Shown here one piece after another: positions 31 through 41,300 of a stretch of 48,177 nt of DNA (positions are counted from its first letter, which is position 1; every line of letters starts with the position of its first letter). The notes beneath the pieces are model-generated. The model had not been told where the DNA came from and did no database searches. It was given only the letters and a program-made list of their open reading frames with translations. Made by a program: the position numbers and the translations under genes. Where the stretch lies: contig JBEITC010000001.1 in NCBI GenBank assembly GCA_040375075.1, forward strand, positions 1 to 48,177. Direction: 5' to 3'. The stretch comes from Planctomycetota bacterium. Lineage in GTDB: Bacteria; Planctomycetota; UBA1135; UBA2386.

Positions 31-1536
31 TCAGAAGGCCTTGAAGCTGCGCAGCCACTTCGTGTTCTGGCAGAGGAAGCACTTGGAGCGGACGATCCGG
101 CCCTCGGGGCCGAGCTCCGGCAGGCTGCCTTCGCCGTTGCAGCTGATGCAGGGCGAAACCGTGGCGAAGGTCATCGCCAACTGGCCGCCGAACTCCGCGT
201 AGTAGGCGCGCAGCCAACCGATGCGGTCGATGCGCTCCGCCTGACGCCACCAGTCCTCGTCCGTCACCTCGCGCTGCTCGGCGCCCTGCGACTGCGCCGC
301 CTGCCGGCGCTCCTGCGCCTGCCGCAGCAGCTTCGACAGACGATCGAGCTGCGGGTTCGACCCGGCGGCCGCCGTGTCGCCACTGCGCTCCTTCTGTGCG
401 GCATTGGACTTGCCCTGCTGCGTGTCCTTGAGGATCGCAGGCTCCCCCAGCGTCCACGAACCGAGTCCGTAGCTGAAGGCCTCCGGGCGCCGGCCGAGCG
501 CGTTGTCCTTGCGGCCGGCCCACAGCGACTTCACCTCCGCCGCGTCGAGCTTCAACGCGCCGCTGACGCGGGTGACGATGTCGTCGGTCATCTTGCCGGT
601 CGCGTAGTCACGCGCCGCTTGCAGCGTCAGGCCGGCGTCGCCGCAGGCCTTGTCGGCGACGACGCGGATCGACTCGCGCCACCGCTCGGCCACCTGGCCG
701 GTCAGGTAGCGCGTGCGGGACTCGGCGAACCGACGCTTCTCGGCGTCGAACTCGGCCTTGAGCTTCGTCTGCGGGTACTCCTTCTCGAACTGCGCGATGA
801 GCTTGCCGCCCTTGTCGAAGTCGGCGAGGCCGCCGCGGCTGCGCGCCGCCTGGATGTCCTCCAGCAGCTTCAGCTCCTTCGCGGCTTCCTTGTAGCGCTG
901 CAGCTTGCCCGCCAAGGCGTCGATCTGCGGCGGGTTCTTGCTGTTGCCGGCGGCGCGCGCCTTCTCGACGTGCTCGAGCGCCCGGTCGTAGTCGCGCACC
1001 TTCATCAGCTGCTCGGCGACCAGCAGATGCTTGTCGGCGTCGCCGCCCGGACTCATCTGCGTGACGAGGTCGGAGTAGTACTCCTCGCGCGTCATCACCT
1101 GCGTCACCGGCGCGTCGATCTTGCGCACGCCGACGACGTCGCGGCGCTTGATGACGCTGGGCACGCCCTTCTGCTGCACGACGATCGTGTCGGCTCCCTG
1201 CTCGACGATGCGGCCGAGCGCCGTGCGCCGCGTGCCGCCGATCTCGTAGGTCACCTCGTCGGCGCGGACGGTGATCTCCTCCTGGGCGTCGCCGGCGAGG
1301 TCGAAGCGCTTCTTCCAGGCCGTTGCGCTGGCCGGCGTGAGGTGGTCCCAGCGCAGGTCGAGCATGCCGCCGTTGTCGAGCCGGCGGACGCGCATGCCTT
1401 CGCCGGTGACGCTGCCGGGCTCGACCTCGGCCAGCAGCACGCGACCGTCGGCGAGTTGCACCGACTGGGCGCGCGCACCGGCGACGAACGCCAAGGCGAG
1501 CAGGAGGAACGCGAGCGGGAAACGCATCATGGCCAT
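31..1536 (-). CDS. secreted protein of unknown function with C-terminal CxxC...CxxC zinc-ribbon-like motif; last gene of the pseudopilus operon
   Basis: ORF frame 31..1815 trimmed to the in-frame signal-peptide-like start MAMMRFPLAFLLLALAFVAGARA. The ATG at 1536 shares one base with the TGA of the upstream gene. The middle is charged and helical. The C-terminus reads SPCISCNGEGS...KCFLCQ, a CxxCxGxG ... CxxC pattern. No family recognised. Confidence 0.65.
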   Translation of the reverse strand: MAMMRFPLAFLLLALAFVAGARAQSVQLADGRVLLAEVEPGSVTGEGMRVRRLDNGGMLDLRWDHLTPASATAWKKRFDLAGDAQEEITVRADEVTYEIGGTRRTALGRIVEQGADTIVVQQKGVPSVIKRRDVVGVRKIDAPVTQVMTREEYYSDLVTQMSPGGDADKHLLVAEQLMKVRDYDRALEHVEKARAAGNSKNPPQIDALAGKLQRYKEAAKELKLLEDIQAARSRGGLADFDKGGKLIAQFEKEYPQTKLKAEFDAEKRRFAESRTRYLTGQVAERWRESIRVVADKACGDAGLTLQAARDYATGKMTDDIVTRVSGALKLDAAEVKSLWAGRKDNALGRRPEAFSYGLGSWTLGEPAILKDTQQGKSNAAQKERSGDTAAAGSNPQLDRLSKLLRQAQERRQAAQSQGAEQREVTDEDWWRQAERIDRIGWLRAYYAEFGGQLAMTFATVSPCISCNGEGSLPELGPEGRIVRSKCFLCQNTKWLRSFKAF

Positions 1537-2006
1537 CACCTGTCCGTAGTCTCCACAGCGTCGCCGCGGGAGGTCAACACCCGGTCGCGCAACGGCGCCT
1601 GCCGCGGCACGACCCTGAGGTACTCCGACACCACTTCTTCGCCGGCGTCGAACCACTTGGCTTCGATGCGCAGCAACCAGACCGTCGGGCGGTCGTCGTC
1701 GGCGATGGCGCGCACGGACCAGCGAAGGCCCGGGAAGCCAGCCCAAGGTTGGTCGACGAGCGGCTTGAACTCCAGTTCCAACGGCGACGAACTGCCGTCG
1801 CGCCCCGCGACGCACTCGTGCATCGCCCGGTGGACGACGTGCTCGACGAGCGCCGTCGTCTCGAGGCGCACGTCGGCGGTGCGCCGCTGGCCGATGCTGC
1901 TCGCCATCGCCGCGAGCAGCGACGTGACGCCGAACAGCAGGATGCCGAGCGCGGCGAGCATCTCGGCGAGCGTGAAGCCGGCTTCGTGACGACGAGGATC
2001 AACCAT
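1536..2006 (-). CDS. minor pseudopilin with prepilin-type N-terminal cleavage/methylation domain (156 aa, GspI/J-like by size and position)
   Basis: Frame 1536..2075 trimmed to MVDPRRHEAGFTLAEMLAALGILLFGV. G|FTLxE followed by a hydrophobic helix is the class-III (type IV pilin) signal. The ATG at 2006 overlaps the upstream stop (1999-2001) by 8 nt. Confidence 0.8.
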   Translation of the reverse strand: MVDPRRHEAGFTLAEMLAALGILLFGVTSLLAAMASSIGQRRTADVRLETTALVEHVVHRAMHECVAGRDGSSSPLELEFKPLVDQPWAGFPGLRWSVRAIADDDRPTVWLLRIEAKWFDAGEEVVSEYLRVVPRQAPLRDRVLTSRGDAVETTDR

Positions 2007-3213
2007 TCCAATCGTCCTTCGCGTGCAGCACGGGCACGACGAACTCGACGCCGCGGCCGACGTGCACGCGTGCACCGCTCGGATGATCCTTCGCAGTGGT
2101 GCCGCGCAGGCCGCGTCGCAGGCCGCGCAGCTCGTCGCCGCTGCGTTCGGCGTAGGCGATCCACTCGGTGCGCACCTTGATCCAACCGCCGTCGACCGGG
2201 CCGGGGAAGCGATCGCCGTCGTAGAGCCGCAGCGTCGTGTCGTCGTTGACGAGGTCGGTCGCGAGCAGGCCCTCGGGCGCGTACTCGGCCGGCTGCGCCA
2301 CCACCATCCGGACGAGGATCGCGTGCGGGTGCACGTCGTCGCGCGGGTCGCTGGCGCTGGCAGCGCCGCGGTCGAACGGGAACTCGCCGCCAGACGCGGC
2401 GTCGACCAGCCAGCCGCCGCGGGCGCTGTCCCAGCAGCGCAACGCCGCGCCCCCGCCCGCCGTCGTGCCGTCGTCGCGGCCCCATTGGCGGGTCCGCTGC
2501 GACCACAGCAGGAACTCGACGTGCAGCAGATTGCCGACCAGCGGTTGCGTCAGCGTCCAGGCCGCGAGCCCCGGCAGATCCGGCGAGCCCGGCAGCGGCA
2601 CGTCGAACGGATCGACGAAACGATCGGGACCGACCGGCACCACCTGGCCCGGCAGCAGCCACGCCGCGCGCAGTTCGAGCAGCGCTTCGTCGGCGCCTTC
2701 CTGCCGCCACGGCAGCAGCAGCAGGTTGCCGTGGCCGCGCAACGGCAAGCCTTGGCGCCCGGTCGCGATGGCCTTCTCGAGCTCGACGCCGGCGAGCGTC
2801 GGTTGTTCGCGCAGCAGTTCGGCGGCGATCTTGGCGTCGAGCAGCGGCAGTTCGCGGTCCGGTGGCAGCCGGACGGCGCCGCGCAGGACCTGGATCTTCG
2901 TCGCGCCACGCTCCGCCCGCGGCGGCAGACCGAGCGGCAGTTCCTGCACGACGAGCCGGTCGGTGACGAACGGCGATTCCCGCCCGGTCGGCGCGCCGCG
3001 CAGCAGCGCAAGTTCCTGCGTGACGCGCCGCTGTGCCGTGCTGGCGCGGTCGGCGAGCGACTGGCCGAGCTCGCCTTCGCCGAACAGGCGCAGGCCGCCA
3101 TCGACGAGTTGCGCCAGCATCAGCAGGAAGCCGGTGAGGATGCCCATGACGACGAGCAGCTCGATCAGCGTGAAGCCATCGCTGCGGCGGGGCGCGCGGA
3201 GCGTCGCGTTCAT
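1999..3213 (-). CDS. large pseudopilin-like protein with prepilin-type N-terminal methylation domain (404 aa)
   Basis: Only the last 404 codons of the 1591-aa ORF 1999..6774 look real. They start MNATLRAPRRSDGFTLIELLVVMGILTGFLL, a class-III signal. The ATG at 3213 forms an ATGA overlap with the stop of the giant upstream gene (3210-3212). The remaining upstream part of the ORF is Arg/Ala/Pro-rich wrong-frame sequence. Confidence 0.8.
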   Translation of the reverse strand: MNATLRAPRRSDGFTLIELLVVMGILTGFLLMLAQLVDGGLRLFGEGELGQSLADRASTAQRRVTQELALLRGAPTGRESPFVTDRLVVQELPLGLPPRAERGATKIQVLRGAVRLPPDRELPLLDAKIAAELLREQPTLAGVELEKAIATGRQGLPLRGHGNLLLLPWRQEGADEALLELRAAWLLPGQVVPVGPDRFVDPFDVPLPGSPDLPGLAAWTLTQPLVGNLLHVEFLLWSQRTRQWGRDDGTTAGGGAALRCWDSARGGWLVDAASGGEFPFDRGAASASDPRDDVHPHAILVRMVVAQPAEYAPEGLLATDLVNDDTTLRLYDGDRFPGPVDGGWIKVRTEWIAYAERSGDELRGLRRGLRGTTAKDHPSGARVHVGRGVEFVVPVLHAKDDWNG

Positions 3214-6200
3214 CGGGCGGTGATCTCCTCGGCGAGCACGCGGGCCTGGCCTTCGTACTCGACGCGCACGTCCTCGACCTTCGCCGTGGTCTTCCAGCCG
3301 TGCGCCCGGTACGTGACCAGGTCGACACAGCCCGGCTGGTAGCGGGTGAAGAACCGCAGCTCGAGCAGCGCGCCGTGATGCATCAGGCGATGTGGCGGCG
3401 CGTCGGCGCTGCCGCCGCGCAGTTCCCACAGCCCGGCAGCCGGCAGCGCCACGCTGTCCCACGAAAGCTTGCCGTCGACGCGCGCGCGGCACATCAGCTC
3501 GACGCGCGCATCCTGGGTCTCCTGGCGCCAGCGCAGCGTCTTGAAGAAGCCTGGAGCCTCGTTGGCCGAGAGTTGGAAGTAGGCGAGCTCCGGGTCGTCG
3601 CTGCGTTCGACGTAACGGTCCCAGTAGCGGATCGGGAACCACACCAGCGCCTGCCCGGCGGCGCCGGTCGCCGGCGTGGTGCCAAAGCGCCCGCGGAACA
3701 GCCCGCGCGGCTGGCCGCCACCCGGCTCGTCGTCGCCCGGGTAGTGGCGCGGCATCTCGAGCTGCGACTGGTCGCCGTTGCGGCGCACCCAGGTGTAGTG
3801 CAGCAACTCCGTGCCGAGCAGCGCCGTGCCGTTGCGCGGCGGCAGCGCGCCGAGGTCCTGCAGCGGGACCTGTGCGTCGCGCACGCCGACGCCGCCAGCG
3901 AGGATCGCCGCCGGACGGTGCGACAGGAACTGCACGCGGGCGCCGCGGCCATGCCCGCGCGGTTGCGTGTTGAGCATGCCGCGGCCGTTGACCGCCACCT
4001 GGAACGTGCCGTCGGCGTGCGTCTGGTAGGCCACCACTTCGTCGTCGATCTGCACGAGGCCGCCGGTCTGCGGGAAGGCCGGCGTGATGTCGTTGGCGAA
4101 GTAGAGCGGCCCGGCCGAGGTCACGTCGATGCTGCGCTGGACGCGGAACGTCTGCGCCGAATCGTTGACGTCGTCGTCGATCACGAGCGTCGGCCGCGCG
4201 TGCTGCACCAGCTCGACCTCGTCGACCATGCCCTGCATCTGCTGGCTGTTGCCCAGACCGGAGCCGAGCGTCGGCTGCTGGCACCACGCCGCCGGCAGCT
4301 CGCCGCTCGGGAACTTGACGAGTCGGTCGAAGCGGCGCGGATCGAACAGCGGCGTGCCACGCGGCGGGCCGAGGTAGGCGTTGGTGACCTGGTCCTGGAA
4401 CGCGACCAGCTGGAACGGCCACGGCCCCAAGCGCTCGGCCGGAACCTGGTTCTGCTGCAGGTTGTCGGCCTCGTAGCGGCGGCACGACCAGTTGACCGTC
4501 TGCCACTCGACCGGCGGCCGCTGCGTGCCGGTCGCGACCGAGCCCTGCACCATGGCGACCCGGTCGAGCCGGCCAGCGCGGCCGGTGTAGGCGCCGAAGT
4601 TGCCCCACTGCAGCTGCATGCGGTGGCAGGCCGTCACCATCGCGTTCGGTTGCGGGTGCGGCGAGGTGCCGGTGAACGGATCGCCGCGGAACGCCAGCGC
4701 GCGGCGCGCGGCATGGATCTGCGGCCACGTGCTCTCGACCTGCGGCGTGTAGCCGATGTAGCCGGACGTGGCCGCGACCTGGGGCCATGGCGGCGTCGAG
4801 GCCGAGGGCTGCGCGTTCGGACCGAGCGGGCCGACGTCGACCTGGGCCGCACCGATGCGGTTGGTCAGCACGAAGCGCACCGACTCCCACGCGGAGCGGT
4901 TGGCGCGGCAGATGTGGCGGCGGTCGGCGATCACGTCGTAGCGCACCCATTCGGTGTCCACGGCGTTCCCGCCCTGCGGCATCAGTTGGCAGAACTGCGT
5001 CAGTTGCAACGTCTGCGGATCCCAAAGCACCTGCGTGTTGGCGACCGGCAGCGAGATCGGCACGACGAAGACGATCTCCGTCGGCAGGTCGTCGAGGATC
5101 TTGCCGGGTTCCTGCGGCAGGCCGTAGTCCTCGTAGTTGACGACGAAGCGGCGCGGTCGGCCGTCGAACTGGTCGGTCGGGATCTGGCCGTCCTGACCCG
5201 GCAGCGCCTGCTGCTGCGCGCGCGTCACGCCGGTCAGCTGGTTGCCCTGGCGCGCGGTGAACTTGATCACCTCGACGCCACCGAAGGTCGCGGACGCCGA
5301 CGTCGTCGCTTGCGAGCGATCCCATCGCTGCAGGCCCTGCACGAGCAGCGCGTAGCCGCCGGTCGTCGGGAAGGCGTTGAGGATCTGTTCGTTGGCGGCG
5401 CTCGGCGGGTACGTGCGACCGGTCGGCACCGGGTCCGCCAGCAGGATGTTGCCGGTCCACGTCTCGTCGAGGCCCGTGCCGATCGGGAACGACGGCCCCT
5501 GCGGGATCGTGATCGTGATCGGTCGCGGGTTGTCGATGAAGCAGCGCGCCACCGCGAAGCCGCCGATGGAGCCCTCGATCGTCGTCTTGCCGACCATCAT
5601 CGGCGTGTCCTCGCTGAGCGGCAGCGACCAGCCGGCCAGTTCGACCAGCGAGCCAGCCGGGTGTGCCGGGAACACGTCGAGGTTCACGCCCTGGAACTGC
5701 GAGCTGTTGATGTCGACCGTCGGGTTGCCTTGCGCGTCGACCGGAATGTCGGGGCGCATCTCGCGGCCGCGCATGCGCGCCGCGCGCCCGCCCATCGAGT
5801 CGTTCCACTGGCAGCGGAACGAGTTGCCGCGCACGCTCGTGTACTCGAACAGCTCGGTGCCGATGCGCAGCAGGCCGACGGGCGGGAAGCCCTCGGTGCT
5901 CTCGACCTGCAGGTCGACGTAGCGGTCGTTGCCGGCGACGCCCGGGAGCGTCTGGTTGTTGGCCAGCTGCGGGTCGAACACCGGCAGCGACGCCGTCAGG
6001 TAGGTCTGGAAGCGCGGCTTGCCGCGCGGGAAGCCGTCGACGTGCAGCGAAAGGTCCGACGGCCGTCCGCCAGCGGCCTGGAACGCCACGTGGACCGGCG
6101 TGTTGGCCGGCAGACCGAGCTCGGCGAGCGGCAAGACCACTTGCGTGGCGGTGCGCGGCACACCGGCCGGCGACGCGCCTGGATTGGGGTCGAGGCCAGC

Positions 6201-8414
6201 CTCGTCGATCGACTCGAGCAGCAGGTTGCCGTCGCGTGCTTCGAGCGCGAGCCGGTTGCGCTGGTCGCTGCCATCGCCGTGCTCGAACAGCGTCACCGCG
6301 CCGAGCGCCTGCGGCTCGAACCACGCGCTGAGCGCCAACTTGCCGAGGAAGCTGTCCTGCGTGCTGAACGGGAACGCGATCTGGTCGTGCCGGCCGGTGC
6401 CCTGCTGCGTCGTCGCCTGACGTTGCTGCTGCGGTTGGTTGCCTTGGCCAGGCTGGCCTTGCGGCTGCGACGGACCATTGTTGTTGAGCAGCAGCGCTCC
6501 GAGCTTGCTGACGTCGTGGCCACGCACGTCCTGCGCGGCCCAGAACGTCTCCTGCACGCGCAGCGTCGGCGAGATGCGGTAGTTGCCCGGCATCGCGGTC
6601 GCCGGCGCTGCTTGGATGCCGGCCGCGGCGTCGTCGCGGGCCGGGAAGCGCAACTGGCCGAAGCCGAGGTTGGGGAACGCCGCCGCAAGCAGGTGCGGCG
6701 CCGCGCGACTCGCCGGGTCGTTGCCCGGTGAATTGGGCTGCAAGGCGCCGAGGTTGACCGGGTTGGTCGTCCAATAGGGCGCGCGGCGATCGAGCAGGAA
6801 CGCTTCTTCGAACTGCTCCTGCGTCGACCAGCGGCGTTCGACGCCGAAGCCCGGCACGGCGGCGGCAACGCCGGTGCGCTCATTGCGTGCGGCCACGCCC
6901 GGCGCCAGCGAACTGCGCGTGCGGCTGGCAGCGGCGCGGTAGGCCATCCACGGCCCCGACTGGAAGCAGATGGGTGCCGTGCCCATCTCGAGCACCGTGT
7001 CACGGCCGGTCTGCAGGTTGCGGTAGACGTTGATCAGCAGCGAGCTCTCGTCCTGGCTGGCCGCCGCTTCGAGCCGCGGTCGCCACAGGCGCTCGACGAG
7101 GTCTTGCCAGCCGGTGAACGGGCCCGTGCCTGCCGTGTCGGTCGCGGTGCGGAGCAGCACGAGGTCGTCGGCGAGCTGGCGCGCCTTGTCGCGGGAGAAC
7201 ACCGGCGGCGACGTCCGGATGGTGCCGGACTCGCTCTGTCGCACCTGCGGCGGCTGGCGCAACTGCGTCAGCAAGGCGGCGAGGACCTCAGCGCTCGCGG
7301 TGTTGGCGTTCACCGGCGGCGGCACGAGCGGCTCGACCACCGTGTCGATGGCGGGGAAGTCCTGCAGCACGGCGTGCAGCAGGTTGAGCAGGAACGTGCT
7401 CGGCAACGCCACGGCCTGCTGGCCGGTGGCCGATGCCGTGCCGACGACGAGGCCGTGCTCGACCGCGCCGGTGCGCAGGTTGCGCAGCCGCACCGTGCTG
7501 CCGGGACCGAGGTGCAGCGCGGACTTGACGATCAGCGTCCGCGCGCCGGGCGCGAGGTCGCCGAACACGCGCTCGGGACGCCCCCACTGAGGCGCCGTGA
7601 CCGCCTGGGTGTCGAGCGCGAAGTTGGCGCGCAGCAGGTCGAGCTCGGCCGGCGTGAACGCGCCAGCGCCGGCACGCTCGATCTCCAGCAGGTCGCCGAC
7701 CGCCTGCCACGGCTTGCGCGTGCGCCGCGTCGCGTCGGCCATGTTCGGCCAGTTGCTCGCCAGGACGCAGCGCCAGTCGAGCAGCAACGTCTGCGCCGGG
7801 ATCGGCTCGCGACCGTCGCCGAACTCCGGCGCGTCGATGGCGCGTTGCAACTGCCGCAGCGAGCTGCCGTCCTTGCCGCCGTAGCGGATCAACTCGCCGC
7901 CGACGAAGACCATGCCGCTCTCCGGCAGGTTCGTGGCGTCGTCGACCGCGATGGCGTCGGCGTCGGGCAGCAACTCTTCGCGGAGGCGCGTCGTCGATCC
8001 CAGCACGTTGGCGATCAGCAGCGGCGAGGCGCCGTCCAGCGACGGGAAACGCTGCAGGTCGACGACGCCGCCGCCGAACACGACCTTGCCGTCCTCGCCC
8101 AGCGGCGCGAACGCCTTGGGCAGGTCGACGCGCGCCGGGAACTCGTCGATGCCGTCGTAGAGCGGCGTCGGGTCGATCGCCGGGTGCGAGAGCGCCGCGT
8201 CGGCGAGCAGCAGTTCGCGCACGCTGGCCGAGCCCTGCGTCACCGCCGCTTCCTCGACATCGCGCTGCGCTGCGTCGGCGCCGACCGACATCGACACCGC
8301 GAACGGCAGCGCCAGCAGCATCAGCAGCGTCAAGGCGAAGAGCACGGCGAGCAACGCCATGCCGGCGGCGCGATCCGCCATGCCGGCGGCGCGACCAATC
8401 GTCGAGCGAATCAT
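3210..8414 (-). CDS. giant GspK-like minor pseudopilin / filament tip protein (1734 aa)
   Basis: Frame 3210..8510 trimmed to MIRSTIG..., whose ATG at 8414 makes an ATGA overlap with the upstream stop at 8411-8413. The N-terminus GMALLAVLFALTLLMLLALPF resembles the GspK-type anchor (no Glu5). VNANTASAEVLAALL (nt 7272-7313) resembles the GspK NxNTA...L helix-hairpin-helix motif. Further features are a LamG-like block (about nt 6015-6347), a Gln-rich linker (about 6410-6500) and several copies of a GxE(L/V)(I/V)xY...RG..GT module. Confidence 0.75.
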   Translation of the reverse strand: MIRSTIGRAAGMADRAAGMALLAVLFALTLLMLLALPFAVSMSVGADAAQRDVEEAAVTQGSASVRELLLADAALSHPAIDPTPLYDGIDEFPARVDLPKAFAPLGEDGKVVFGGGVVDLQRFPSLDGASPLLIANVLGSTTRLREELLPDADAIAVDDATNLPESGMVFVGGELIRYGGKDGSSLRQLQRAIDAPEFGDGREPIPAQTLLLDWRCVLASNWPNMADATRRTRKPWQAVGDLLEIERAGAGAFTPAELDLLRANFALDTQAVTAPQWGRPERVFGDLAPGARTLIVKSALHLGPGSTVRLRNLRTGAVEHGLVVGTASATGQQAVALPSTFLLNLLHAVLQDFPAIDTVVEPLVPPPVNANTASAEVLAALLTQLRQPPQVRQSESGTIRTSPPVFSRDKARQLADDLVLLRTATDTAGTGPFTGWQDLVERLWRPRLEAAASQDESSLLINVYRNLQTGRDTVLEMGTAPICFQSGPWMAYRAAASRTRSSLAPGVAARNERTGVAAAVPGFGVERRWSTQEQFEEAFLLDRRAPYWTTNPVNLGALQPNSPGNDPASRAAPHLLAAAFPNLGFGQLRFPARDDAAAGIQAAPATAMPGNYRISPTLRVQETFWAAQDVRGHDVSKLGALLLNNNGPSQPQGQPGQGNQPQQQRQATTQQGTGRHDQIAFPFSTQDSFLGKLALSAWFEPQALGAVTLFEHGDGSDQRNRLALEARDGNLLLESIDEAGLDPNPGASPAGVPRTATQVVLPLAELGLPANTPVHVAFQAAGGRPSDLSLHVDGFPRGKPRFQTYLTASLPVFDPQLANNQTLPGVAGNDRYVDLQVESTEGFPPVGLLRIGTELFEYTSVRGNSFRCQWNDSMGGRAARMRGREMRPDIPVDAQGNPTVDINSSQFQGVNLDVFPAHPAGSLVELAGWSLPLSEDTPMMVGKTTIEGSIGGFAVARCFIDNPRPITITIPQGPSFPIGTGLDETWTGNILLADPVPTGRTYPPSAANEQILNAFPTTGGYALLVQGLQRWDRSQATTSASATFGGVEVIKFTARQGNQLTGVTRAQQQALPGQDGQIPTDQFDGRPRRFVVNYEDYGLPQEPGKILDDLPTEIVFVVPISLPVANTQVLWDPQTLQLTQFCQLMPQGGNAVDTEWVRYDVIADRRHICRANRSAWESVRFVLTNRIGAAQVDVGPLGPNAQPSASTPPWPQVAATSGYIGYTPQVESTWPQIHAARRALAFRGDPFTGTSPHPQPNAMVTACHRMQLQWGNFGAYTGRAGRLDRVAMVQGSVATGTQRPPVEWQTVNWSCRRYEADNLQQNQVPAERLGPWPFQLVAFQDQVTNAYLGPPRGTPLFDPRRFDRLVKFPSGELPAAWCQQPTLGSGLGNSQQMQGMVDEVELVQHARPTLVIDDDVNDSAQTFRVQRSIDVTSAGPLYFANDITPAFPQTGGLVQIDDEVVAYQTHADGTFQVAVNGRGMLNTQPRGHGRGARVQFLSHRPAAILAGGVGVRDAQVPLQDLGALPPRNGTALLGTELLHYTWVRRNGDQSQLEMPRHYPGDDEPGGGQPRGLFRGRFGTTPATGAAGQALVWFPIRYWDRYVERSDDPELAYFQLSANEAPGFFKTLRWRQETQDARVELMCRARVDGKLSWDSVALPAAGLWELRGGSADAPPHRLMHHGALLELRFFTRYQPGCVDLVTYRAHGWKTTAKVEDVRVEYEGQARVLAEEITAR
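8355..8396 (-). repeat. perfect-phase 21-bp tandem duplication (2 units, 20/21 identical) inside the 5' end of the giant gene
   Basis: Plus strand reads cgccatgccggcggcgcgatc (8355-8375) followed by cgccatgccggcggcgcgacc (8376-8396). It encodes RAAGMAD/RAAGMAL just before the membrane anchor and creates two extra in-frame ATG codons. Confidence 0.85.
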
Positions 8415-9340: not shown

Positions 9341-9379
9341 CGTGGCGAGGGATCGGAAGCCAGTCTCGATTGGCCGGGC

Positions 9380-10015: not shown

Positions 10016-10016
10016 G

Positions 10017-12725
10017 TCAGCGCTCCTTGCGGCGTTCGAGCCGCCAGTCGTCGAAGGCGACGTCGACGTCGTCGCCCTTGTCGCCGAGCGCGAAGAGCAC
10101 CGTCTTCAGCTCGGAGTTGGTATTGCCGGTCAGCGCCTTCATGACGCGGCGGTGGACGACCGCGCCATTCCAGCTGACGACGAGCGCGAACTGCCGCGTC
10201 GCCGCATCGCCTTGCGGCACGAGGCGCAGTTCCAGGCTGGCCGCAGCGCCCGGCTGGAAACCAGGGATCGCGAGGTTCACCTGCTCGACCGCGGCTTCGC
10301 CGTTCTCACGGCCATCCTCGATGCGCAGGAAGGGCTTGCCTTCGCGCACGCCGACGCGGACCAGCACGTCCGTGCCCTGGTTGCCGCGCGGCACCTCGAT
10401 GCCGACGCCGTAGAAGCCGCGTGCGGAGGGCTGGCCAGCGCCGGCCTGCACCGTGGCGGACACGGCGAGGAAGTTGCGGCCCTTCTTGATCGCGCTGACG
10501 CGCTCGGCCCAGACCTGGCCTTGACCGGAGCGGCTGTACTTGCCGCGGAACGCCAACCGGCCGTCGACGATCTTGCCGCCGAGCGGGCCGTCGTCGTCGA
10601 CGGCCCAGACGCTGCCGACCTCGGCGCGGTCGAAGGAGTCGCCGAGCGATTCCTTCTGCGCATGGTCGTCGATCGCGTCGAGCGTCGCGGAGGCCCACTT
10701 CGACACCGGATCGTCCTTGCCGAGGTCCTGGGTCAGGCGCTGCAGCGCCATGGCGGCGTCGTCAACCTGACCGCGGCTGTAGTCGACGACCGCCAGGGCG
10801 CCCTTGCCGAACGCCTTGTTGCGCTCGTCGGCCGCTGCGTCGCGACCGGCGGCGAAGGCCGAGCTCGCGGCGCGCGGCTCGGCCGCGGCGAAGGCGATGA
10901 CGCCTTGCCACTCGAGCAGCTCCTGCGCCACCAGCGGCGCCAGCGCGACCGCGCGGTCGGCGTAGCGCAGCGCGGCGACGATGGCCGCCGCCTGCTCCTC
11001 GCCCACGCTCTCCCGCGCACGCGCGGCCTGCGCGGCCGCCATCTCGGCGACGGCGTGCACGAAGTCGTCGCGCATACGCAGCGCCCCTGACAGCGCCTCG
11101 ACCGCGGCGCCGAGCTGGCCCGAGAGGCGCAGCGCACGACCGCGCAGGTACTGCGCGAACACGTCGGTCGGATCCGCCTCGAGCGCGCGATCGAGCCAGC
11201 CGAGCGCCGTCTCGTACTGGCCGACGCGCAGGAACGCCCAGGCCACGCCGGTGGCGGCGCGGTGCCGCAGCAGCGGATCCTGGTCGAAGACGCGCAGGAA
11301 CAGGTCGTGCGCTTCCTGCAGCTTGTCGAGCCACGCGAGGCAGGCCGCCTGCCCGAGCTGCGCGGCTCCGAGGTCGCCGACGTTGGTCACGTTGCGGAAC
11401 GCGGCGAGCGCGGCGTTGGCGTCGCCGGCGGCGTACGCGATGCAGCCTTCGAGGTACTGCGTGCCGCCTTCCGTGCCTTGCGCCATCGGCAGCGCGGCGC
11501 GGGCGCCGGCGAGGTCGCCGATGGCGAGCCGGCACTGCACGATGATGCGGCCGACGCGCGCCTTGGCGACGGGATCCTGCACCGAGCCGATGGCCTGCTC
11601 GGCGCGCTGCGCGGCGCCAGCCGCTTCCTTGCTGCGACCGCGCTGGCGCAGGAACTCGGCGAGCGCCGCATGCGGCCGCGCGTCCGTCGGCTGCAGCTGC
11701 GCGGCCTGCCGCAGGTCTGCCTCGGCGTCGCGCCAGAGGCCGAGCCGCGCCTTGACGACGCCCAGGCCCTCGAAGCGGAAGGCGCCTTCACTGCCGTTCG
11801 CCGGCAGCTTGTCGAGCATCGCCAGTTCGGCGGCGAGGTCGCCCTGCATGCGCAGCACGCGCTGCATCAGCCGCAAGCCTTCGAGGTCGCCCTTGGACAA
11901 CTCGCGGTAGCGCTGCGCGTGGAAGAACGCCTTCTCGTACACCCAGCTGTGTTCGCGCGCGCGCTCGAGCAGCCAGTCGACCAGGCCGCGACGCTCGGGC
12001 AGGTGCGACGGCAGGTCCGGCACCTTGCGCTCGCGCCGAACGATCTCGTTGCGCAGCGTGTTGGCGAGGACCACGCGGTCGATCCGCAGCGGATCGCCGC
12101 CCAGCGTGATGACCTCGGCGAGGCGCTGGCGCGTCAGGTCGTACTTGCGCAGCTTGAGCGTGACGCCGGCGAAGTCCGTGCGCTCCTCGAGCGCGAAGAG
12201 GTCCAGGCCTTCGCCCTCGAGCACGCCGAACTGGGGCGCGGCAAGGCCACCGTAGTAGACGCGGTCGTAGGTCAGCGCGGCGCGCGCTTCCATGTCCGAG
12301 CGCGTCGACGGGGCCTGGCCGTCGCCGGCCTCCGCCGCGGGCGCTGCGGCCGGCGACTCGCCAGCGGCAGCGAGGGCGACGTCGGCCAGCACGCCACCGT
12401 CGGCGCGCAGCGTGTAGGCCTGGCGCGGATCCGGACCTGGATCGAGCGGCAACGCCGCGAGCGACAGCGGCGCATGCGGCGGGAAGTCGAGCGCGCGCGG
12501 CGGCAGCGACTTCGTCTCGCTCGGTTCGGTGCAGAAGTCGCGGCGCGCGGGCGCCGGCGCCGACGAGTCGACCAACGCCGGCACGGCGACCGTCGCGGCC
12601 TCGTACTCGGCGGCCTGCGGCGAGTAGCGGCGGAAGGCCGGCGGACCGCCGAGGTAGCCCTTGGCGACGAGGGCCACGACGACCAACGTCAGCACGGCGA
12701 GAACCTGTTCCTTGCGCATCGCCAT
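10017..12725 (-). CDS. membrane-anchored TPR-repeat protein with C-terminal concanavalin-like jelly-roll domain (902 aa)
   Basis: Frame 10017..12794 trimmed to MAMRKEQVLAVLTLVVVALVAKG. The ATG at 12725 shares a base with the upstream TGA. It has a single N-terminal TM helix and a long TPR-like helical-repeat region (e.g. GQYETALGWLDRALEADPTDVFAQYLRG). The C-terminal 200 aa (about nt 10020-10640) end in VDVAFDDWRLE, resembling DUF1080/LamG-type folds. Confidence 0.75.
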   Translation of the reverse strand: MAMRKEQVLAVLTLVVVALVAKGYLGGPPAFRRYSPQAAEYEAATVAVPALVDSSAPAPARRDFCTEPSETKSLPPRALDFPPHAPLSLAALPLDPGPDPRQAYTLRADGGVLADVALAAAGESPAAAPAAEAGDGQAPSTRSDMEARAALTYDRVYYGGLAAPQFGVLEGEGLDLFALEERTDFAGVTLKLRKYDLTRQRLAEVITLGGDPLRIDRVVLANTLRNEIVRRERKVPDLPSHLPERRGLVDWLLERAREHSWVYEKAFFHAQRYRELSKGDLEGLRLMQRVLRMQGDLAAELAMLDKLPANGSEGAFRFEGLGVVKARLGLWRDAEADLRQAAQLQPTDARPHAALAEFLRQRGRSKEAAGAAQRAEQAIGSVQDPVAKARVGRIIVQCRLAIGDLAGARAALPMAQGTEGGTQYLEGCIAYAAGDANAALAAFRNVTNVGDLGAAQLGQAACLAWLDKLQEAHDLFLRVFDQDPLLRHRAATGVAWAFLRVGQYETALGWLDRALEADPTDVFAQYLRGRALRLSGQLGAAVEALSGALRMRDDFVHAVAEMAAAQAARARESVGEEQAAAIVAALRYADRAVALAPLVAQELLEWQGVIAFAAAEPRAASSAFAAGRDAAADERNKAFGKGALAVVDYSRGQVDDAAMALQRLTQDLGKDDPVSKWASATLDAIDDHAQKESLGDSFDRAEVGSVWAVDDDGPLGGKIVDGRLAFRGKYSRSGQGQVWAERVSAIKKGRNFLAVSATVQAGAGQPSARGFYGVGIEVPRGNQGTDVLVRVGVREGKPFLRIEDGRENGEAAVEQVNLAIPGFQPGAAASLELRLVPQGDAATRQFALVVSWNGAVVHRRVMKALTGNTNSELKTVLFALGDKGDDVDVAFDDWRLERRKER

Positions 12726-13546
12726 CACTTGCCCTCCTGCTCGTCGGCCTTCGGCTTGAACGCGATGCCGACCGCCGTGCCCTTGATCGAGCACGGTTCA
12801 CCCGGCCGCGCCGGCTTCAGCATCTGCCACGACTCCAGCACGAGCGCCTGGCCCTGGGTCGATCCGCGCATCGCCTCGAGGAAGGCCAACGCGGTGGCCT
12901 CGTCGGACTGGAACTGGAACGACAACTGCTCTTGCGTGAAGAAGTCGCGGACGTCGATTTCGCCCTGCCGCGGCGCGCGCAGCGGCGAACGCTGGCTGCG
13001 GCGCGCGTCGAGCCGCAGCGCCAGGATGGCGCGCAACCCCACCGCCGCCTCGTCGCCGGCGCGCGTTGCGTCGTGCGCAGCGAACAGTCGTTGCTGGCAC
13101 GCGTCGATCAACTCGAGCCCGAACAGCGTCGCGCGGATCTCGTCGACGCCGGTCGGCACCTCCCACGCGATGCCACCATCGGCGACCTGCACGTCGCGCT
13201 GGTTCGCCGCCGTGAGGATCCGCTGCTTGAGGTCGCGGCTCTGCTGGAAGAGGAAGTCGCCCGGCCGGACGCCTTCCGGCAGCTGGAACCCGGCGCCAGG
13301 CACGTACTGCAATGCCGCGACGAGCGCGGCGCGCGCCTTGGCGAGCTCTTCGCCCTCGGTCCGGGCGGCGTCGAGCGCGGCCTGCGTGTAGACCGGCCCG
13401 GTCGGCGCGCCGAGGCTGCGCTCGGTCTGCAGCCGCACCGCGTGGACCGAATCGAAGATCGCGCTGACGACCAGCCAGCCGACGGCGCCGCAACCGGCAC
13501 CGAGCAGCCACTTCTTGTTCTCCTGAACGAACGCGCCGACGTCCAT
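12725..13546 (-). CDS. bitopic inner-membrane assembly protein in the PilO/GspM position (273 aa)
   Basis: Last 273 codons of ORF 12725..15145, starting MDVGAFVQENKKWLLGAGCGAVGWLVVSAIF (one TM helix). The ATG at 13546 shares a base with the PilM/N stop. The functional call rests on position and topology only. Confidence 0.55.
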   Translation of the reverse strand: MDVGAFVQENKKWLLGAGCGAVGWLVVSAIFDSVHAVRLQTERSLGAPTGPVYTQAALDAARTEGEELAKARAALVAALQYVPGAGFQLPEGVRPGDFLFQQSRDLKQRILTAANQRDVQVADGGIAWEVPTGVDEIRATLFGLELIDACQQRLFAAHDATRAGDEAAVGLRAILALRLDARRSQRSPLRAPRQGEIDVRDFFTQEQLSFQFQSDEATALAFLEAMRGSTQGQALVLESWQMLKPARPGEPCSIKGTAVGIAFKPKADEQEGK

Positions 13547-15165
13547 CACTTCGCCTCCTTGGCGAGCTCGACCGTGATGCGGAATCGCTCCGCCTTGTCC
13601 TGGCTGGCGATCGGCACCATCTGCGCCTCGAGGCCGGCCATGCCCGGGTCCGCCTGCATCGCTTGCTTGAACTTGAGGATGGCGCCGCTGGTCTGCACGC
13701 CATCGACCTCCTTGCCAGCGCCCTCGATGACGACGGCCGGCTTCTTGCGCACGCCGCCACCACCGCCGGCGGTCACTTCGACCTTCTCGATCCACAGCTG
13801 CGGCGGCAGGTGCGCGGCGACCGCCCGCTGGATCCGCAGCAGGCCGTGTTGCGCGAGCGACAGGCCGGCAAGGTGCTCGACCAGCGCGCGGTCGGCCTTG
13901 TTGGCGTCGATCTGCGCCGCCGCGTCGTTCTGGATGGTGGTCGCCGTGCCGATCTGGCGACGCAGTTGCTGGCCAGCGACCTCCGCCGCAGCGACGGCCT
14001 TGCCGCCGTGGACCCACTCGAGCGCCAACGCGCCGACCACGAGCGCGCCGGCGGCGATGTTCCAGATCGTGCGCTGTTGGAAGCGCTGCGCCTTGCGCAC
14101 CGCCTCCGGCAGGATCTCGAGCGCGTACAGCGACTCGTCGAGCCGACCGACCGCGAGACCGAGGGCCACGACGGCCTCCGCCCGGTTGGCCTGCAGCATC
14201 TCGGCGTCCGCCGGCGGCAGCGCCGACAGGTCGAGGTTGGCGAACGGATCGAACGCCTCGACCGGGCACCGCAGGGCTTCGCGCAGGAAGCCGCGCACGC
14301 CGCGCAGGTTGGCGCCGCCGCCGCTGAGCAGCACGCGGTCGACCTTCAGGTCCGCGATCTTCGTCTGGCTCTTGCAGAACGAGATCGACGACTGGATCGC
14401 GGAGCTGATCGCGCCCGCCGCCGACGTCGCCGCGAGCGCGACCTTCTCCGCCGGGCCGCCGCCGTGACGACCGCGGTTCTGCGGGTCGATGTCCAGCAGC
14501 TCCTTCTTGAGCGCTTCGGCCTTGCGCTCCGAGACGTTGAACGCCGACGCGATCGCGTCGTCGAAGACCTTGGCGCCCGCGCTGAGGTTGCGCGCGAACA
14601 ACAGGTCGGTGCCCTTGACGATGGCGAGGTCGATCGTCTGGTGGCCGATGTGCGCCAGCACGACGACGCTGTCGGCCTCGACCGGGCCGCACTTCAGGTA
14701 GGCGTTGTAGAGCGCCGTGCAGTTCGGGACGAACGCGGCGACCGCGCCGCCGGCGTCCTTGACCTGCTGCTGCAACCGGTCGAGCGCGTCGTCCTTGGCG
14801 AGCGCGAGCAGGATCGTGTCGACGCCCGACTCGGGGTCCTGGCTCGGCAGCAGGTTGTAGTCGGCGGAGAGCGCTCCGCCGGACTGCTGCGCGAGATCGG
14901 CGATCTCGAGGTCCATCAGGTTGCGCAGCTGCCAGTCCGGCGTCGGCGGCACCTGGCTGTAGCGCAGCATCATGTCGCGGCCGGTCACGCCGCAGACGAC
15001 GCCGGCGAGCGGCACGCCGGCATCGCGCAGGCTCGCTGGCTGGCCGTCCTCGCCGCGCGGGACGACCGAGAACCGCAGGATCTTCACGCCGTGCTTGTCG
15101 GCCGAGGCCACCAGCGTCTTCGCGCTGTGGCTGCCCAGGTCGCACGCAGTCGCTTTCTTCGCCAT
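13546..15165 (-). CDS. pilM: PilM-PilN fusion / GspL-like assembly protein (539 aa)
   Basis: The actin-like ATPase fold motifs of PilM are present: N-terminal CDLGSHSAKTLV and LLSGGGANLRG. A TM helix (IWNIAAGALVVGALALEWV) and a PilN-like coiled/periplasmic tail follow. Confidence 0.8.
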   Translation of the reverse strand: MAKKATACDLGSHSAKTLVASADKHGVKILRFSVVPRGEDGQPASLRDAGVPLAGVVCGVTGRDMMLRYSQVPPTPDWQLRNLMDLEIADLAQQSGGALSADYNLLPSQDPESGVDTILLALAKDDALDRLQQQVKDAGGAVAAFVPNCTALYNAYLKCGPVEADSVVVLAHIGHQTIDLAIVKGTDLLFARNLSAGAKVFDDAIASAFNVSERKAEALKKELLDIDPQNRGRHGGGPAEKVALAATSAAGAISSAIQSSISFCKSQTKIADLKVDRVLLSGGGANLRGVRGFLREALRCPVEAFDPFANLDLSALPPADAEMLQANRAEAVVALGLAVGRLDESLYALEILPEAVRKAQRFQQRTIWNIAAGALVVGALALEWVHGGKAVAAAEVAGQQLRRQIGTATTIQNDAAAQIDANKADRALVEHLAGLSLAQHGLLRIQRAVAAHLPPQLWIEKVEVTAGGGGGVRKKPAVVIEGAGKEVDGVQTSGAILKFKQAMQADPGMAGLEAQMVPIASQDKAERFRITVELAKEAK

Positions 15166-15187
15166 GGGTTTGGTTCCGTGCGCGCCG

Positions 15188-17134
15188 TCAGTTGCCGAGG
15201 TTCTTCTGGATGTAATCGCGGACGATGCGGCTCAAGCCGTCCTGCTGCGCGTCCGCGAATGCCTGCGCCAGCGCTTGCAGGCGCTGGCGCTGCTGCACCG
15301 CCGATTGCGCGTCGAACTCGGCGAGCTTGCCGCGGGCCGCGTCGCGCAGCGCCATGGTCGCCTTGGCGTCGCCGAGGTTGCGTTCGCCGTAGAGCGCGAC
15401 GACGTCCTCGACGCCCAGCGCCACGCGCTCGAAGCCGCCGCGCGTCGAGAAGAACGCCGCCTCGTCGAAGTCGCGTTGCAGGTCGCGCAGCGTCGCCGCC
15501 TGCGCCGCCATCGTCTCGGCCGCCAGCGCGAGCGCCTGGCCGAGCACCTCGGAGTCCATCGGCGCGCGCGTCGCGACTTCGCGGAGCTTGTCGAGCGCCT
15601 CGCCCGGACGCCCCTCGTCGCGCGCGCGGCGCGACTGCCGCACCAGCTCGGCGGCCTGCTGCCGCTCGGAGCGGAACAGCACGTCGACCTCGAACTCCGC
15701 GAGCCCAGGCACCGACAGCCGGTACCTGCCGCTGCCCGATCGCCCGACGCAATCGACCTCGCCGGCAAAACGCAGGTGCGCGCGCGTCAGGTCGTTGCCG
15801 AACAGCGCCGAGGCGCAACGGAAGCTGGAGGCCGCGGCGGTCGAGCTGTACACGCCGTCCGGCGTGCCGGTGACCAGCGCGCCTGCGGCGTCGGCCGGCA
15901 TGACGAACTGCAGGCCCGGCGCGTTGCCCGCGACGAAGCGGAAGCCGCGCTCGCCGGCGGTCGCGGCCAGCGTCGCACCGAGATCGCTCAGCACGAGCAG
16001 GTCGGCGCGATGCAGCCCCGCGAGTTCCGGCGGCGCCGGGTCGGGCAGGACCGCCAGGAGCACTGCGGGCGCGTCCTTGTCGACGGACCGCAGCGCGAGC
16101 GCTGCGCCGGTGCCGAACACGGTATGGCTGCCATCGGCCAGCTTGGCCTCGATCGGCGCGGCCGAACCCGCTTCGACGATGCTGCAGTCGTCGACGTAGG
16201 CGACCGCGTCGGCGGCCGGCAAGGTCGCGACCACTTCCAGCTGCAGGCGATCGCAACCGGTCGGCGCGGCCAGCACGAGTTCCAGTCGCGTCCAGCCGTC
16301 TGCGGTCGCCAGCTTGGTGCCGGTGCGGAAGGTGAACGGCGCCTGCTCGCTGGCCGAGAAGAACACCGCGCGCAGCGCGATGCTCGCGCCCGCTTCCGAG
16401 CGCACGTGCGCAGCCAGGGTGTAGGCGCGCTGCGGGAACACCGGCGTCGGTTCCTGGCTGCGCAAGACCGCGAAGTCCGCGGCCTCGGCGGCCTCGCCGC
16501 GGCGCGCTTCGAACGCGCCGGATCCCGTGTGGGCAACGCCGCAGAGCCCGAAGCCAGCGCCCGCCGGACGCAGCAACCAGCCATCGGTCGTCTCGCAGCT
16601 ACTCGCGCCCGCCGCCAGCTTGTCGCCGGCGATGGCCAGGACGGCCCGCGGACCCGCGCTGCCGCCACCGTCGCCGCCGGCCTGCTGCGCGCTTCCCAGC
16701 CAGAGATACCCGCCGACCGCGAGGCCGGCAGCGAGCGCGATCGCCAGCACGGCCGTCGAACGCGAACCCTTGCCCAAGCGGCTGCGGTCGATCGTGCGCA
16801 CCGCCAAATCGCCGGCGTCCGCACTCGCCACGGCGGCAGCGCCCTCGGCGCGGAATGCGACGCGCCAGCGGCCGAACGTCACCACGTCGCCCGGCGTCAA
16901 CACGATCTCGGTGACGCGCTTGCCGTCGAGGAACGTGCCGTTCGTCGAGCCGGTGTCGCGCAAGACGCAGCGTTCGCCTTCGAGAACGATCTCGGCGTGG
17001 CTGCCGGACGTCTTCTCGTCCGCGAGCACGACGTCGTTGCCCGGCTTGCGGCCGATGCGCAACGGATGGTCCGGGATCGCAACGACTTCGCCGGCTCGAT
17101 CCCCGTCGAGGATCTCGAGGACGTACTTGGCCAT
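15188..17134 (-). CDS. FHA-domain protein with TM helix and periplasmic CBM-like beta-sandwich (648 aa); first gene of the operon
   Basis: The N-terminal 95 aa match the FHA pattern (LRIGRKPGNDVVLADEKTSGSHAEI...LRDTGSTNGTFLDGKRV). A TM helix follows (AVLAIALAAGLAVGGYLWLG). The next block, WTRLELVLAAP...LQLEVV...AYVDDCSIVE, resembles CBM4/9-type sugar-binding modules. The C-terminal domain is helical. Confidence 0.85.
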   Translation of the reverse strand: MAKYVLEILDGDRAGEVVAIPDHPLRIGRKPGNDVVLADEKTSGSHAEIVLEGERCVLRDTGSTNGTFLDGKRVTEIVLTPGDVVTFGRWRVAFRAEGAAAVASADAGDLAVRTIDRSRLGKGSRSTAVLAIALAAGLAVGGYLWLGSAQQAGGDGGGSAGPRAVLAIAGDKLAAGASSCETTDGWLLRPAGAGFGLCGVAHTGSGAFEARRGEAAEAADFAVLRSQEPTPVFPQRAYTLAAHVRSEAGASIALRAVFFSASEQAPFTFRTGTKLATADGWTRLELVLAAPTGCDRLQLEVVATLPAADAVAYVDDCSIVEAGSAAPIEAKLADGSHTVFGTGAALALRSVDKDAPAVLLAVLPDPAPPELAGLHRADLLVLSDLGATLAATAGERGFRFVAGNAPGLQFVMPADAAGALVTGTPDGVYSSTAAASSFRCASALFGNDLTRAHLRFAGEVDCVGRSGSGRYRLSVPGLAEFEVDVLFRSERQQAAELVRQSRRARDEGRPGEALDKLREVATRAPMDSEVLGQALALAAETMAAQAATLRDLQRDFDEAAFFSTRGGFERVALGVEDVVALYGERNLGDAKATMALRDAARGKLAEFDAQSAVQQRQRLQALAQAFADAQQDGLSRIVRDYIQKNLGN

Positions 17135-17347
17135 CGGTGGGTTGAGGGGTCGGGCGGCGAGCGAGCCGCATCACGCGGTGCGCGCCGGCGGACTGCCGGC
17201 GCACCGGACGGGTCGGGGACGCGAGCCCGGCTCCGGATCAGCACAAACTAGCCCCGCGTCGATGCGCCGCAACCAAGCGTTGCCAAGACTTCTACGCCTC
17301 ATCGAGGTCGCCGCGTCGCGACGTCGCCGCTACAACCTGCCGCTGGG

Positions 17348-20332: not shown

Positions 20333-20503
20333 GGTGCGATGCAGGGACGAAGTGAGACGAGCGCCGAAGCCCGGCGCCATGGCGGGGACTTCGCCACCGT
20401 AACTCTATCCCTCGACTCTGCCTAGCCCGCCCCGTCGATCCCGGATCGAGACCTCGAGGCCAGCCTTGCATGGCCGCCCGCAACCGCCGACTGTGGGCGG
20501 ACG

Positions 20504-38423: not shown

Positions 38424-38442
38424 GGCTTGGGCAGGGCTCGGT

Positions 38443-41266: not shown

Positions 41267-41300
41267 TCCCGATCGGCCCCTGAACCCGAGCCGCCACGCC

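Follow-up and report, generated by a model that had tools for sequence, protein, structure and literature searches.

We report an eleven-gene operon in a 48,177-nucleotide stretch of Planctomycetota DNA (contig JBEITC010000001.1, positions 1 to 48,177; the whole stretch is called the window below) that probably encodes the platform and the filament, one half of a type IV filament machine particular to this lineage; its tip would be giant and adhesin-like, and its motor supplied in trans. Ten of its genes, numbered g1 to g10 in the direction of transcription, lie on the minus strand at positions 31-17134, and an eleventh, g11, runs off the window. The parts set comprises a protein that joins PilM to PilN, one G-type pilin, three further pilins bearing the glutamate at position 5 (Glu5) and one K-type pilin that lacks it. 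An earlier account made from the letters alone (the sequence-only reading) had proposed a filament module of a type IV filament machine; our analysis supports this proposal and finds an assembly platform together with the filament.

The ten open reading frames (ORFs) of 31-17134 all start with ATG and stop with TGA. Adjacent genes overlap by 1 nt (TGATG) at 13546, 12725 and 1536, by 4 nt (ATGA) at 8411-8414 and 3210-3213 and by 8 nt at 1999-2006, the remaining gaps being 1, 22 and 39 nt, and Shine-Dalgarno-like AGGAGG/GGGAGG motifs precede most of the starts. The sequence-only reading had the ORFs, their coordinates and every junction exactly right, its count of ten coupled genes being one short of the eleven in the operon. 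Each of g1-g10 encodes exactly one hydrophobic segment. With 72% G+C in the window, third-position G+C is 0.84-0.94 in g1, g2, g4-g7 and g10, the genes whose frames can be measured cleanly, as expected for real genes here; these values and the conservation of the genes rule out a degraded or chance string of ORFs. Nor can the arrangement be due to chance, since dozens of independent contigs keep the same order, even at protein identities as low as 25-40%. Upstream, a 213-nt intergenic region (17135-17347) separates g1 from rsmE (17348-18028, plus strand), the divergent neighbor already noted in the sequence-only reading, and presumably holds the operon promoter; no Rfam family, sigma-70 promoter match or terminator signal was found in this region or in the operon.

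The platform is represented first by g2 (13546-15165), a 539-aa predicted inner-membrane protein with a transmembrane segment (TM) at residues 367-385. Its product matches Pfam PilM_2 (E=2e-17, 63.6 bits; cut-off 27), and a profile of 30 family members, compared with structures in the Protein Data Bank (PDB), matches solved PilM proteins of type IVa pili (T4aP) from Myxococcus, Thermus and Pseudomonas at E=3e-38 to 1e-21 (3jc8_Ma at 3e-38, 2ych at 5e-36). Profile positions 352-472, after the TM, match Myxococcus xanthus PilN (3jc8_Na, E=1.4e-6), and no GspL chain was matched in the same search. Because the profile matches solved PilM and PilN and not GspL, g2 is, as judged by these comparisons, a genuine PilM-PilN fusion; of the earlier label "PilM-PilN/GspL-like", the first part stands and the second does not. 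Among named families, g2 scores 82.6 bits against TIGR01175 pilM, under the cut-off of 133, and its best NCBIfam is Amuc_1101_fam (NF045709), which is also the top named family for all 30 of the 30 g2 relatives tested, none of them near the cut-off. At 135.8 bits against a cut-off of 650, g2 belongs to a sister family of Amuc_1101 and not to the same family. In an exhaustive phmmer search, 196 clusters (50% identity) had E<1e-30; most are 530-600 aa long with a single TM around residue 370, and the fusion is therefore the hallmark of a large family.

Directly after g2, g3 (12725-13546) encodes a 273-aa bitopic protein with a TM at 13-31 and about 240 periplasmic residues. It is present in all copies of the operon and, from its position after the PilM-PilN protein, may fill the PilO role; no match was found in Pfam, NCBIfam or PDB sequences, and profile alignment (hhalign) shows no significant similarity to the PilN part of g2.

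Four genes encode proteins with a class-III signal (the arrow marks the cleavage site), which we read directly in agreement with the sequence-only reading: g5 (9380-10015, 211 aa, G↓FTLIELL), the probable major pilin, and the minor pilins g6 (8411-9340, 309 aa, G↓FTLFELL), g8 (1999-3213, 404 aa, G↓FTLIELL) and g9 (1536-2006, 156 aa, G↓FTLAEML). All four have the G↓F-x-x-x-E signature and hydrophobic alpha1 helix of the type IV pilin/pseudopilin superfamily and exceed the gathering score of Pfam N_methyl (g9 at 22.5 bits, cut-off 21.2), and g5, g6 and g8 also pass the cut-off of TIGR02532. The best named family of g5 is gspG TIGR01710, at 51.4 bits against a cut-off of 88.85 and over the N-terminal 62 aa only; Pfam T2SSG likewise stays under its cut-off (13.7 bits, 21 required), and matches in the PDB are limited to the pilin alpha1 helix. 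The g5 family has a conserved, acidic C-terminal motif, LLSAGxDxxFGTDDDxxWPxN, and no conserved Cys pair. Past the alpha1 helix, no solved structure was matched by g5, g6, g8 or g9, with one weak exception: in g6, Laminin_G_3 was matched at E=7e-4 without reaching its gathering score, and the PDB profile search gave weak laminin-G/SHBG matches besides the pilin N-terminus, which point to a possible LamG/ConA-like globular domain. For g9, gspI TIGR01707 (E=5e-4) and ComGE (9e-5) were matched below threshold, a weak GspI/ComGE likeness.

The fifth pilin-like protein, encoded by g7 (3210-8414), is a putative minor pilin of 1734 aa. Its N-terminus, RAAG↓MALLAVLF, is of pilin type without Glu5, as in the GspK/PilX anchor, and is conserved in 60 homologues, the anchor consensus ERGxALLAVLFALTLL holding in 61 sequences. 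By hhalign, g7 aligned with E. coli GspK over the N-terminus only, and Pfam T2SSK is matched at E=0.029 (15.2 bits, cut-off 24.2) over just 17 residues (368-384, VNANTASAEVL, a VNxNTAS motif). AlphaFold (AF2) models built on 60 homologues are confident, with a pLDDT of 86 and a pTM of 0.85 for residues 1-620 and a pLDDT of 79 for residues 1-1200; both place an N-terminal alpha1 helix (10-74 in the shorter model, 17-74 in the longer) ahead of many beta-rich modules. Foldseek searches of the PDB with these models gave no match below E=0.001, the best local matches being the N-terminal domains, about 100 residues long, of phage tailspikes and depolymerases, LamG/neurexin domains and small beta-barrels. 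Against predicted viral structures (BFVD), 31 matches had E<=0.001, down to 3e-6, mostly to tail-fibre, baseplate and ConA-like proteins. A motif of about 50 residues, G-x-[IV]-x-[IV]-x-x-E-x-[IV]-x-Y ... RG..GT..H..G, recurs three or four times in g7 (at residues ~167, ~847, ~1451 and ~1500) and once in g8 (~342), and fold searches suggest that it forms a small beta-barrel like those of phage tailspike N-terminal domains. As modeled, the modular, beta-rich body of g7 looks like a receptor-binding or adhesin array. None of the 105 homologues examined (105/105) has a Pfam domain; nearly all are about 1.7 kaa long, a few being partial, and those with a source name are labeled "hypothetical protein", as are most proteins of the operon in public records.

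The enlargement of these proteins, to which the sequence-only reading had drawn attention, is confirmed by comparison with E. coli K-12 Gsp proteins: 211 vs 145 aa for G, 309 vs 169 for H, 1734 vs 327 for K, 539 vs 387 for L and 273 vs 153 for M. The labels "GspH-like", "GspK-like" and "PilO/GspM" that it had given to g6, g7 and g3 are grounded solely in position, topology and the N-terminal anchor. For g7 the anchor and the role in the operon hold up; for the fold, Foldseek gave no match to GspK, and the T2SSK score stays below its cut-off.

The remaining genes encode candidate signaling, scaffold and folding factors. The product of g1 (15188-17134, 648 aa) has an FHA domain at residues 1-97, a TM at 128-146 and a periplasmic domain of about 500 aa. 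It matches Pfam FHA (E=7e-18, 65.3 bits; cut-off 20.7) and Yop-YscD_cpl (E=3e-16), and its profile finds solved FHA domains, GarA among them (3e-13), over the FHA region and nothing among solved structures beyond it. The phosphothreonine (pThr)-binding residues G28, R29, S43, H46, S63, T64, N65 and G66 are invariant in six orthologues; both the fold and the conserved Arg, Ser, His and Asn (R29, S43, H46, N65) of an FHA phosphothreonine reader are present. The 902-aa product of g4 (10017-12725) has a TM at 8-26, a TPR array at about 280-590, matched by Pfam TPR families and, in the PDB profile search, by TPR proteins only, and a beta-rich C-terminal domain; a protein of 885-911 aa fills this position in all relatives. 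The 501-aa product of g10 (31-1536) is a predicted secreted protein with an A-x-A↓Q signal-peptide site and a C-terminal CxxCxG...CxxCxG four-Cys motif. The four Cys (C463, C466, C486 and C489) are invariant, and the two CxxCxG motifs (residues 463-489) resemble one DnaJ-type zinc center, unusual in a protein with a signal peptide; comparison with the PDB gave insignificant matches only (TPR, 0.08; Ydj1 Zn finger, 0.33).

The eleventh gene, g11, starts with GTG at window position 58 on the minus strand, shares 28 nt with the end of g10 and exits the window after its first 19 codons (1-58). It is complete in a locus 99.85% identical to the window (L001, 11479-12498), where it encodes a 339-aa predicted lipoprotein peptidyl-prolyl isomerase of the PpiC/PrsA type (Pfam Rotamase); the lipobox Cys is found in all orthologues. 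In another locus, L094, both outer flanks differ and g11 is still joined to the operon, and from this retention we count it as a member.

Conservation of the operon extends far beyond close relatives. The proteins closely related to g2, g5 and g7 are from metagenomes and metagenome-assembled genomes (MAGs); apart from one or two exceptions ("[bacterium]", Neolewinella sp.), all names given are Planctomycetota, Planctomycetes or Phycisphaerales. The full gene order is kept in a 6.6-Mb MAG contig (L007) and in Tara Oceans contigs (L009, L010, L093), in L011, where all ten genes are 42-57% identical, and in the carriers of the most divergent g7 (L091, L092). Among the carriers are also GCA_046290465.1, with the operon at 869,401-891,011 of JBKAGP010000001.1, and GCA_050245995.1, both complete or nearly so. 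A metagenome scan anchored on a g2 relative of 39% identity added about 25 loci, in which g2 is 36-41% and g7 25-34% identical to the window proteins and the order is unchanged: FHA protein, PilM-PilN protein, ~260-aa protein, ~890-aa TPR protein, G-type pilin, H-position pilin and a giant of >1,600 aa. Eleven-gene synteny holds in L011, L091-L094 and these ~25 metagenome loci at 25-40% identity. A separate orthologue scan of a genome collection was dominated by the generic GFTLIELL pattern and returned one true orthologous locus (L011) besides unrelated pseudopilin loci.

Several other loci met in these scans have their own arrangements. Clusters of gspE, gspF and pseudopilin genes exist in other Planctomycetota (L015, L016), one of which, in a Planctomycetaceae MAG (L015, 2991-11851), carries two tandem GspE paralogues, GspF and four tandem G-type pseudopilin genes. 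A Kiritimatiellia MAG (L080, 9944-17457) groups in one block a DUF1559-type pseudopilin, a secretin, a PilM-N fusion, 279-aa and 211-aa proteins and GspE; this fusion, of 550 aa and 27% identical to g2, is a distant relative from the superphylum of Planctomycetes, Verrucomicrobia and Chlamydiae (PVC). Among the operon loci themselves, L131 alone has, directly upstream of its FHA gene and in the same orientation, genes for TadG-like and TadZ/CpaE-like proteins, a CpaF ATPase, TadB and TadC (1755-7712).

No motor gene accompanies the operon. The claim that genes for an ATPase, platform, secretin or peptidase are lacking in and beside it holds in Pfam and tblastn searches: T2SSE, T2SSF, Secretin and Peptidase_A24 domains are missing from the 20 further ORFs of the window, and E. 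coli K-12 GspD, GspE, GspF and GspO found nothing by tblastn in the 48-kb window or in any of the ~35 operon-bearing loci, although the same queries readily pick up the control loci L015, L016, L062 and L080. A motor elsewhere in the window is thereby ruled out. The related loci show no D, E, F or O genes in the 8-10 kb visible upstream, the one exception being L131 with its Tad cluster; neither the window nor the operon loci have gspC-D-E-F beside the pseudopilin genes, no secretin or PilP was found in either, and g3 shows no similarity to PilO or GspM. Canonical gsp genes just past position 1, which could have overturned the sequence-only reading, are likewise ruled out: the next 3-4 kb, seen in the near-identical L001 and other loci, hold the rotamase gene, scpB, an AMP-binding enzyme gene and a NUDIX gene, and no gspD, gspE or gspF.

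This separation alters two points of the earlier description. The module is not self-contained, because its prepilins require a peptidase and an ATPase/platform pair coded elsewhere, and the missing motor is not anomalous in itself, because split loci are normal for T4aP: in Pseudomonas, pilMNOPQ, fimU-pilVWXY1E and pilBCD are unlinked.

Taken together, the genes can be read as follows. The PilM-PilN protein g2 and g3 in the PilO position would form a bitopic platform, to which an ATPase of the PilB/GspE family and a platform protein of the PilC/GspF type, both coded elsewhere, would dock; a prepilin peptidase, also coded elsewhere, would cleave the four G↓FTL prepilins, and any secretin would come from another locus too. 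At the filament tip, g9, g8 and g7 may form an I-J-K-type priming complex, linked by g6 to the g5 polymer. The g7 body of ~1,650 residues, with its lectin-like and phage-tail-fibre-like beta modules, would then supply the adhesin or receptor-binding head of the tip within the same polypeptide, much as if PilX and PilY1 were joined into one protein. The licensing-complex framework, in which I-J-K tip complexes carry an adhesin in cis or in trans (PMC13533445), supports this arrangement of the tip. The FHA domain of g1 could couple assembly to, or gate it by, Ser/Thr-kinase signaling through pThr binding, g4 may be a periplasm-spanning TPR scaffold, and g10 and the PrsA-like g11 could be dedicated periplasmic folding or assembly factors for the large subunits.

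Several observations weigh against such a filament. In hhalign comparisons with E. coli proteins, g3 is not significantly similar to GspM (probability 0.2), g9 aligns with GspI over the N-terminus only, and the same holds for g8 with GspJ as well as in the PDB. The g7 models retrieve no GspK/XcpX at E<=10 among the top 50 Foldseek matches in the PDB. With GspG as its top named match and no conserved disulphide, g5 suits an endopilus as well as a pilus. As no ATPase, platform, peptidase or secretin is tied to the operon in any genome, a motor in trans is an assumption, and all carriers are uncultured organisms known from MAGs and metagenomes.

The point about g5 leads to a different machine, a divergent type II secretion system (T2SS) of which the operon would be the G-H-I-J-K-L-M half, with a short periplasmic endopilus pushing folded cargo through a secretin coded elsewhere. 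It would account for the GspG match and GspG-like acidic GTDDD motif of g5 without a conserved Cys pair, for the GspK-type anchor and T2SSK motif of g7, for the weak GspI likeness of g9 and for the name given to g5 by NCBI, "type II secretion system protein". Conserved secreted proteins also lie next to the operon: past the divergent rsmE, on the operon strand, 18098-20380 encodes a secreted 760-aa Gly/Ser/Thr-rich protein without a Pfam domain, with between one and three tandem paralogues at the corresponding position in L007, L009/L010, L112, L139, L141 and L168. This protein could be cargo or fibre-associated. For an endopilus, such secreted proteins of about 700 aa upstream would be candidate cargo and the enlarged pseudopilins its recognition modules. 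The T2SS reading as a whole we consider unlikely: the platform protein matches T4aP PilM/PilN and not GspL, a 185-kDa tip subunit would be hard to fit in the secretin vestibule, GspC, GspD, GspE and GspF are not found nearby in ~35 loci, and no curated T2SS model is reached. An extended pilus that adheres or captures seems to us more likely than a T2SS piston, given the T4aP-like platform, the implausibility of such a tip in the vestibule and the receptor-binding-like tip modules. A T2SS framing of the operon is in this sense half right, failing at the platform protein.

A second alternative has the pilin-like proteins not polymerize at all, serving instead as membrane-anchored periplasmic lectins or binding proteins, arrayed on the PilMN/TPR/FHA scaffold for substrate capture in an enlarged periplasm. 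An analogue would be the expanded DUF1559 pseudopilin-like families of Planctomycetota. The LamG lectin-like domains in g6 and g7, the many solitary pseudopilin genes of Planctomycetota loci and the failure to find a linked motor would all fit; we nevertheless think it highly improbable, as the operon has a full, stoichiometrically ordered pilin set with a G-type pilin, four minor pilins and a Glu5-less K-type subunit, a PilM-PilN platform of a kind known from filament machines only, and strict co-conservation of the set over deep divergence. That the module is driven by a non-canonical partner such as a Tad-type CpaF/TadBC motor, in place of PilB/GspE and PilC/GspF, deserves scarcely any credence: its support is the TadG-TadZ-CpaF-TadB-TadC cluster of L131, an adjacency unique among ~35 loci and on that ground judged coincidental, and Tad systems use Flp-type pilins and have no PilM, PilN or PilO.

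Beyond the platform-plus-filament reading that we prefer, a bolder version of it can be stated. Fibre-mediated polymer uptake has long been observed in planctomycetes, and its mechanism has been reviewed as still unknown (PMC12673574). Conceivably, though we would call it improbable, the operon represents a distinct Planctomycetota-specific class of type IV filament whose giant tip pilin, with its lectin- and tail-fibre-like modules, captures macromolecules, and thus the genetic basis of this uptake, parallel to and distinct from the MUL2 system of Akkermansia discussed below.

The rest of the window is made up of other genes. Past rsmE and upstream of the operon lie genes of housekeeping and metabolism, for methyltransferases, a NUDIX protein, pheST, TusA/OsmC, an S46 peptidase, AcrB, ATP-grasp proteins and a glycogen-synthase-like protein. 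At 37206-42521, three ATP-grasp genes flank the large glycogen-synthase-like GT5/GT1 gene, the longest ORF of which overlaps one ATP-grasp ORF on the opposite strand, and a phosphopantetheinyl transferase gene follows further downstream (42909-43640); this region has the look of a small biosynthetic cluster that has no relation to the operon.

Our findings describe a deeply conserved module that mixes a T4aP-type PilM/PilN protein with GspG- and GspK-type subunits and adds an FHA signaling protein, a TM-TPR scaffold, dedicated foldases and an adhesin-sized, phage-tail-fibre-like body on a K-type tip pilin. For adhesion by fibres or the capture of polymers in Planctomycetota, the operon is a concrete candidate. 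It would offer, in g7, a natural in-cis fusion of K pilin and adhesin that bears on models of filament priming, and it widens a PVC-specific family of PilM-N fusions of which a single member has been studied, the one that Akkermansia needs to take up mucin. In the literature searched, on Planctomycetes, pseudopilins, PilM, type IV filaments and crateriform pili, we found no description of this operon or of its combination of an FHA-TM protein, a fused PilMN, a TM-TPR protein, a giant K-type pilin, a Zn-finger protein and a PrsA-like foldase.

Type IV filaments are divided into T4aP, T4bP, Tad, MSH, Com, T2SS and archaeal forms. By its sequences, the operon falls short of the defining cut-offs of all its closest systems, and the earlier suspicion that it may not fit the canonical classes is borne out to the extent that no named T2SS, pilus or PVC family cut-off is passed. 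T4aP (PilMNOP and FimU-PilVWX-PilY1 of Myxococcus, Pseudomonas and Thermus) share with it the PilM and PilN matched by g2, a bitopic protein in the PilO position after them, four minor pilins of which one is of the Glu5-less K/PilX type, a very large tip component and, in many T4aP organisms, platform and minor-pilin genes unlinked from pilB, pilC and pilD. In contrast to T4aP, the operon fuses PilM with PilN, has TM-TPR and FHA-TM proteins instead of PilP and PilQ, carries the adhesin-sized body within the K-type pilin and not on a separate PilY1, and includes a GspG-like major pilin and dedicated foldase genes.

The G-M block of the T2SS (E. coli K-12 gsp) resembles it in encoding, within one coupled operon, a major and four minor pseudopilins, an actin-like bitopic L-type protein and an M-type protein, in the K-type anchor without Glu5 and in the GspG match of g5. 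It differs in that the order here is L-M-(TPR)-G-H-K-x-x with no C, D, E, F or O gene linked, no protein reaches a Gsp equivalog cut-off, the platform is PilM/N-like and not GspL-like, every component is 1.25-5 times larger and the g7 model has no match to the GspK fold.

Within the PVC superphylum, the nearest comparison is the MUL2 locus that Akkermansia requires for mucin uptake, which encodes the secretin Amuc_1098, Amuc_1099, Amuc_1100, the PilM-like Amuc_1101 (MUL2B) and the pilin-like Amuc_1102 (MUL2A) (PMC13174399). Amuc_1101_fam is the nearest named family for g2, both being PVC fusions of PilM, TM and periplasmic parts in pilus-like loci, and the Kiritimatiellia relative of g2 sits in a comparable layout of secretin, PilMN and ATPase. 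Unlike MUL2, the operon has no adjacent secretin, its pilins are classical G↓FTLxE prepilins and not archaeal-like as Amuc_1102, and nothing in MUL2 corresponds to its FHA, TPR, giant pilin and foldase genes. The Verru_Chthon cassettes A-D (TIGR02596-02600) are likewise lineage-specific PVC sets of enlarged pilin-like proteins, and g5, g6 and g8 match proteins C and D weakly at their N-termini, but at 12-24 bits against cut-offs of 70-256, and g7 has no match to cassette protein A.

For g7, the comparison is with the tip adhesins TadG/CpaL and PilC/PilY1, large adhesin-type proteins joined to a K-family pilin at the tip. The in-cis form, described for GspK of the T2SS and CpaL of Tad (PMC13533445), would fit g7, which is however 3-5 times larger and has no detectable vWA or beta-propeller domain. 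Since its parts list is a standard one for type IV filaments, the operon is not a new category; what is striking about it is not the absence of a motor but a fixed eleven-gene architecture kept over deep divergence and a giant modular tip pilin.

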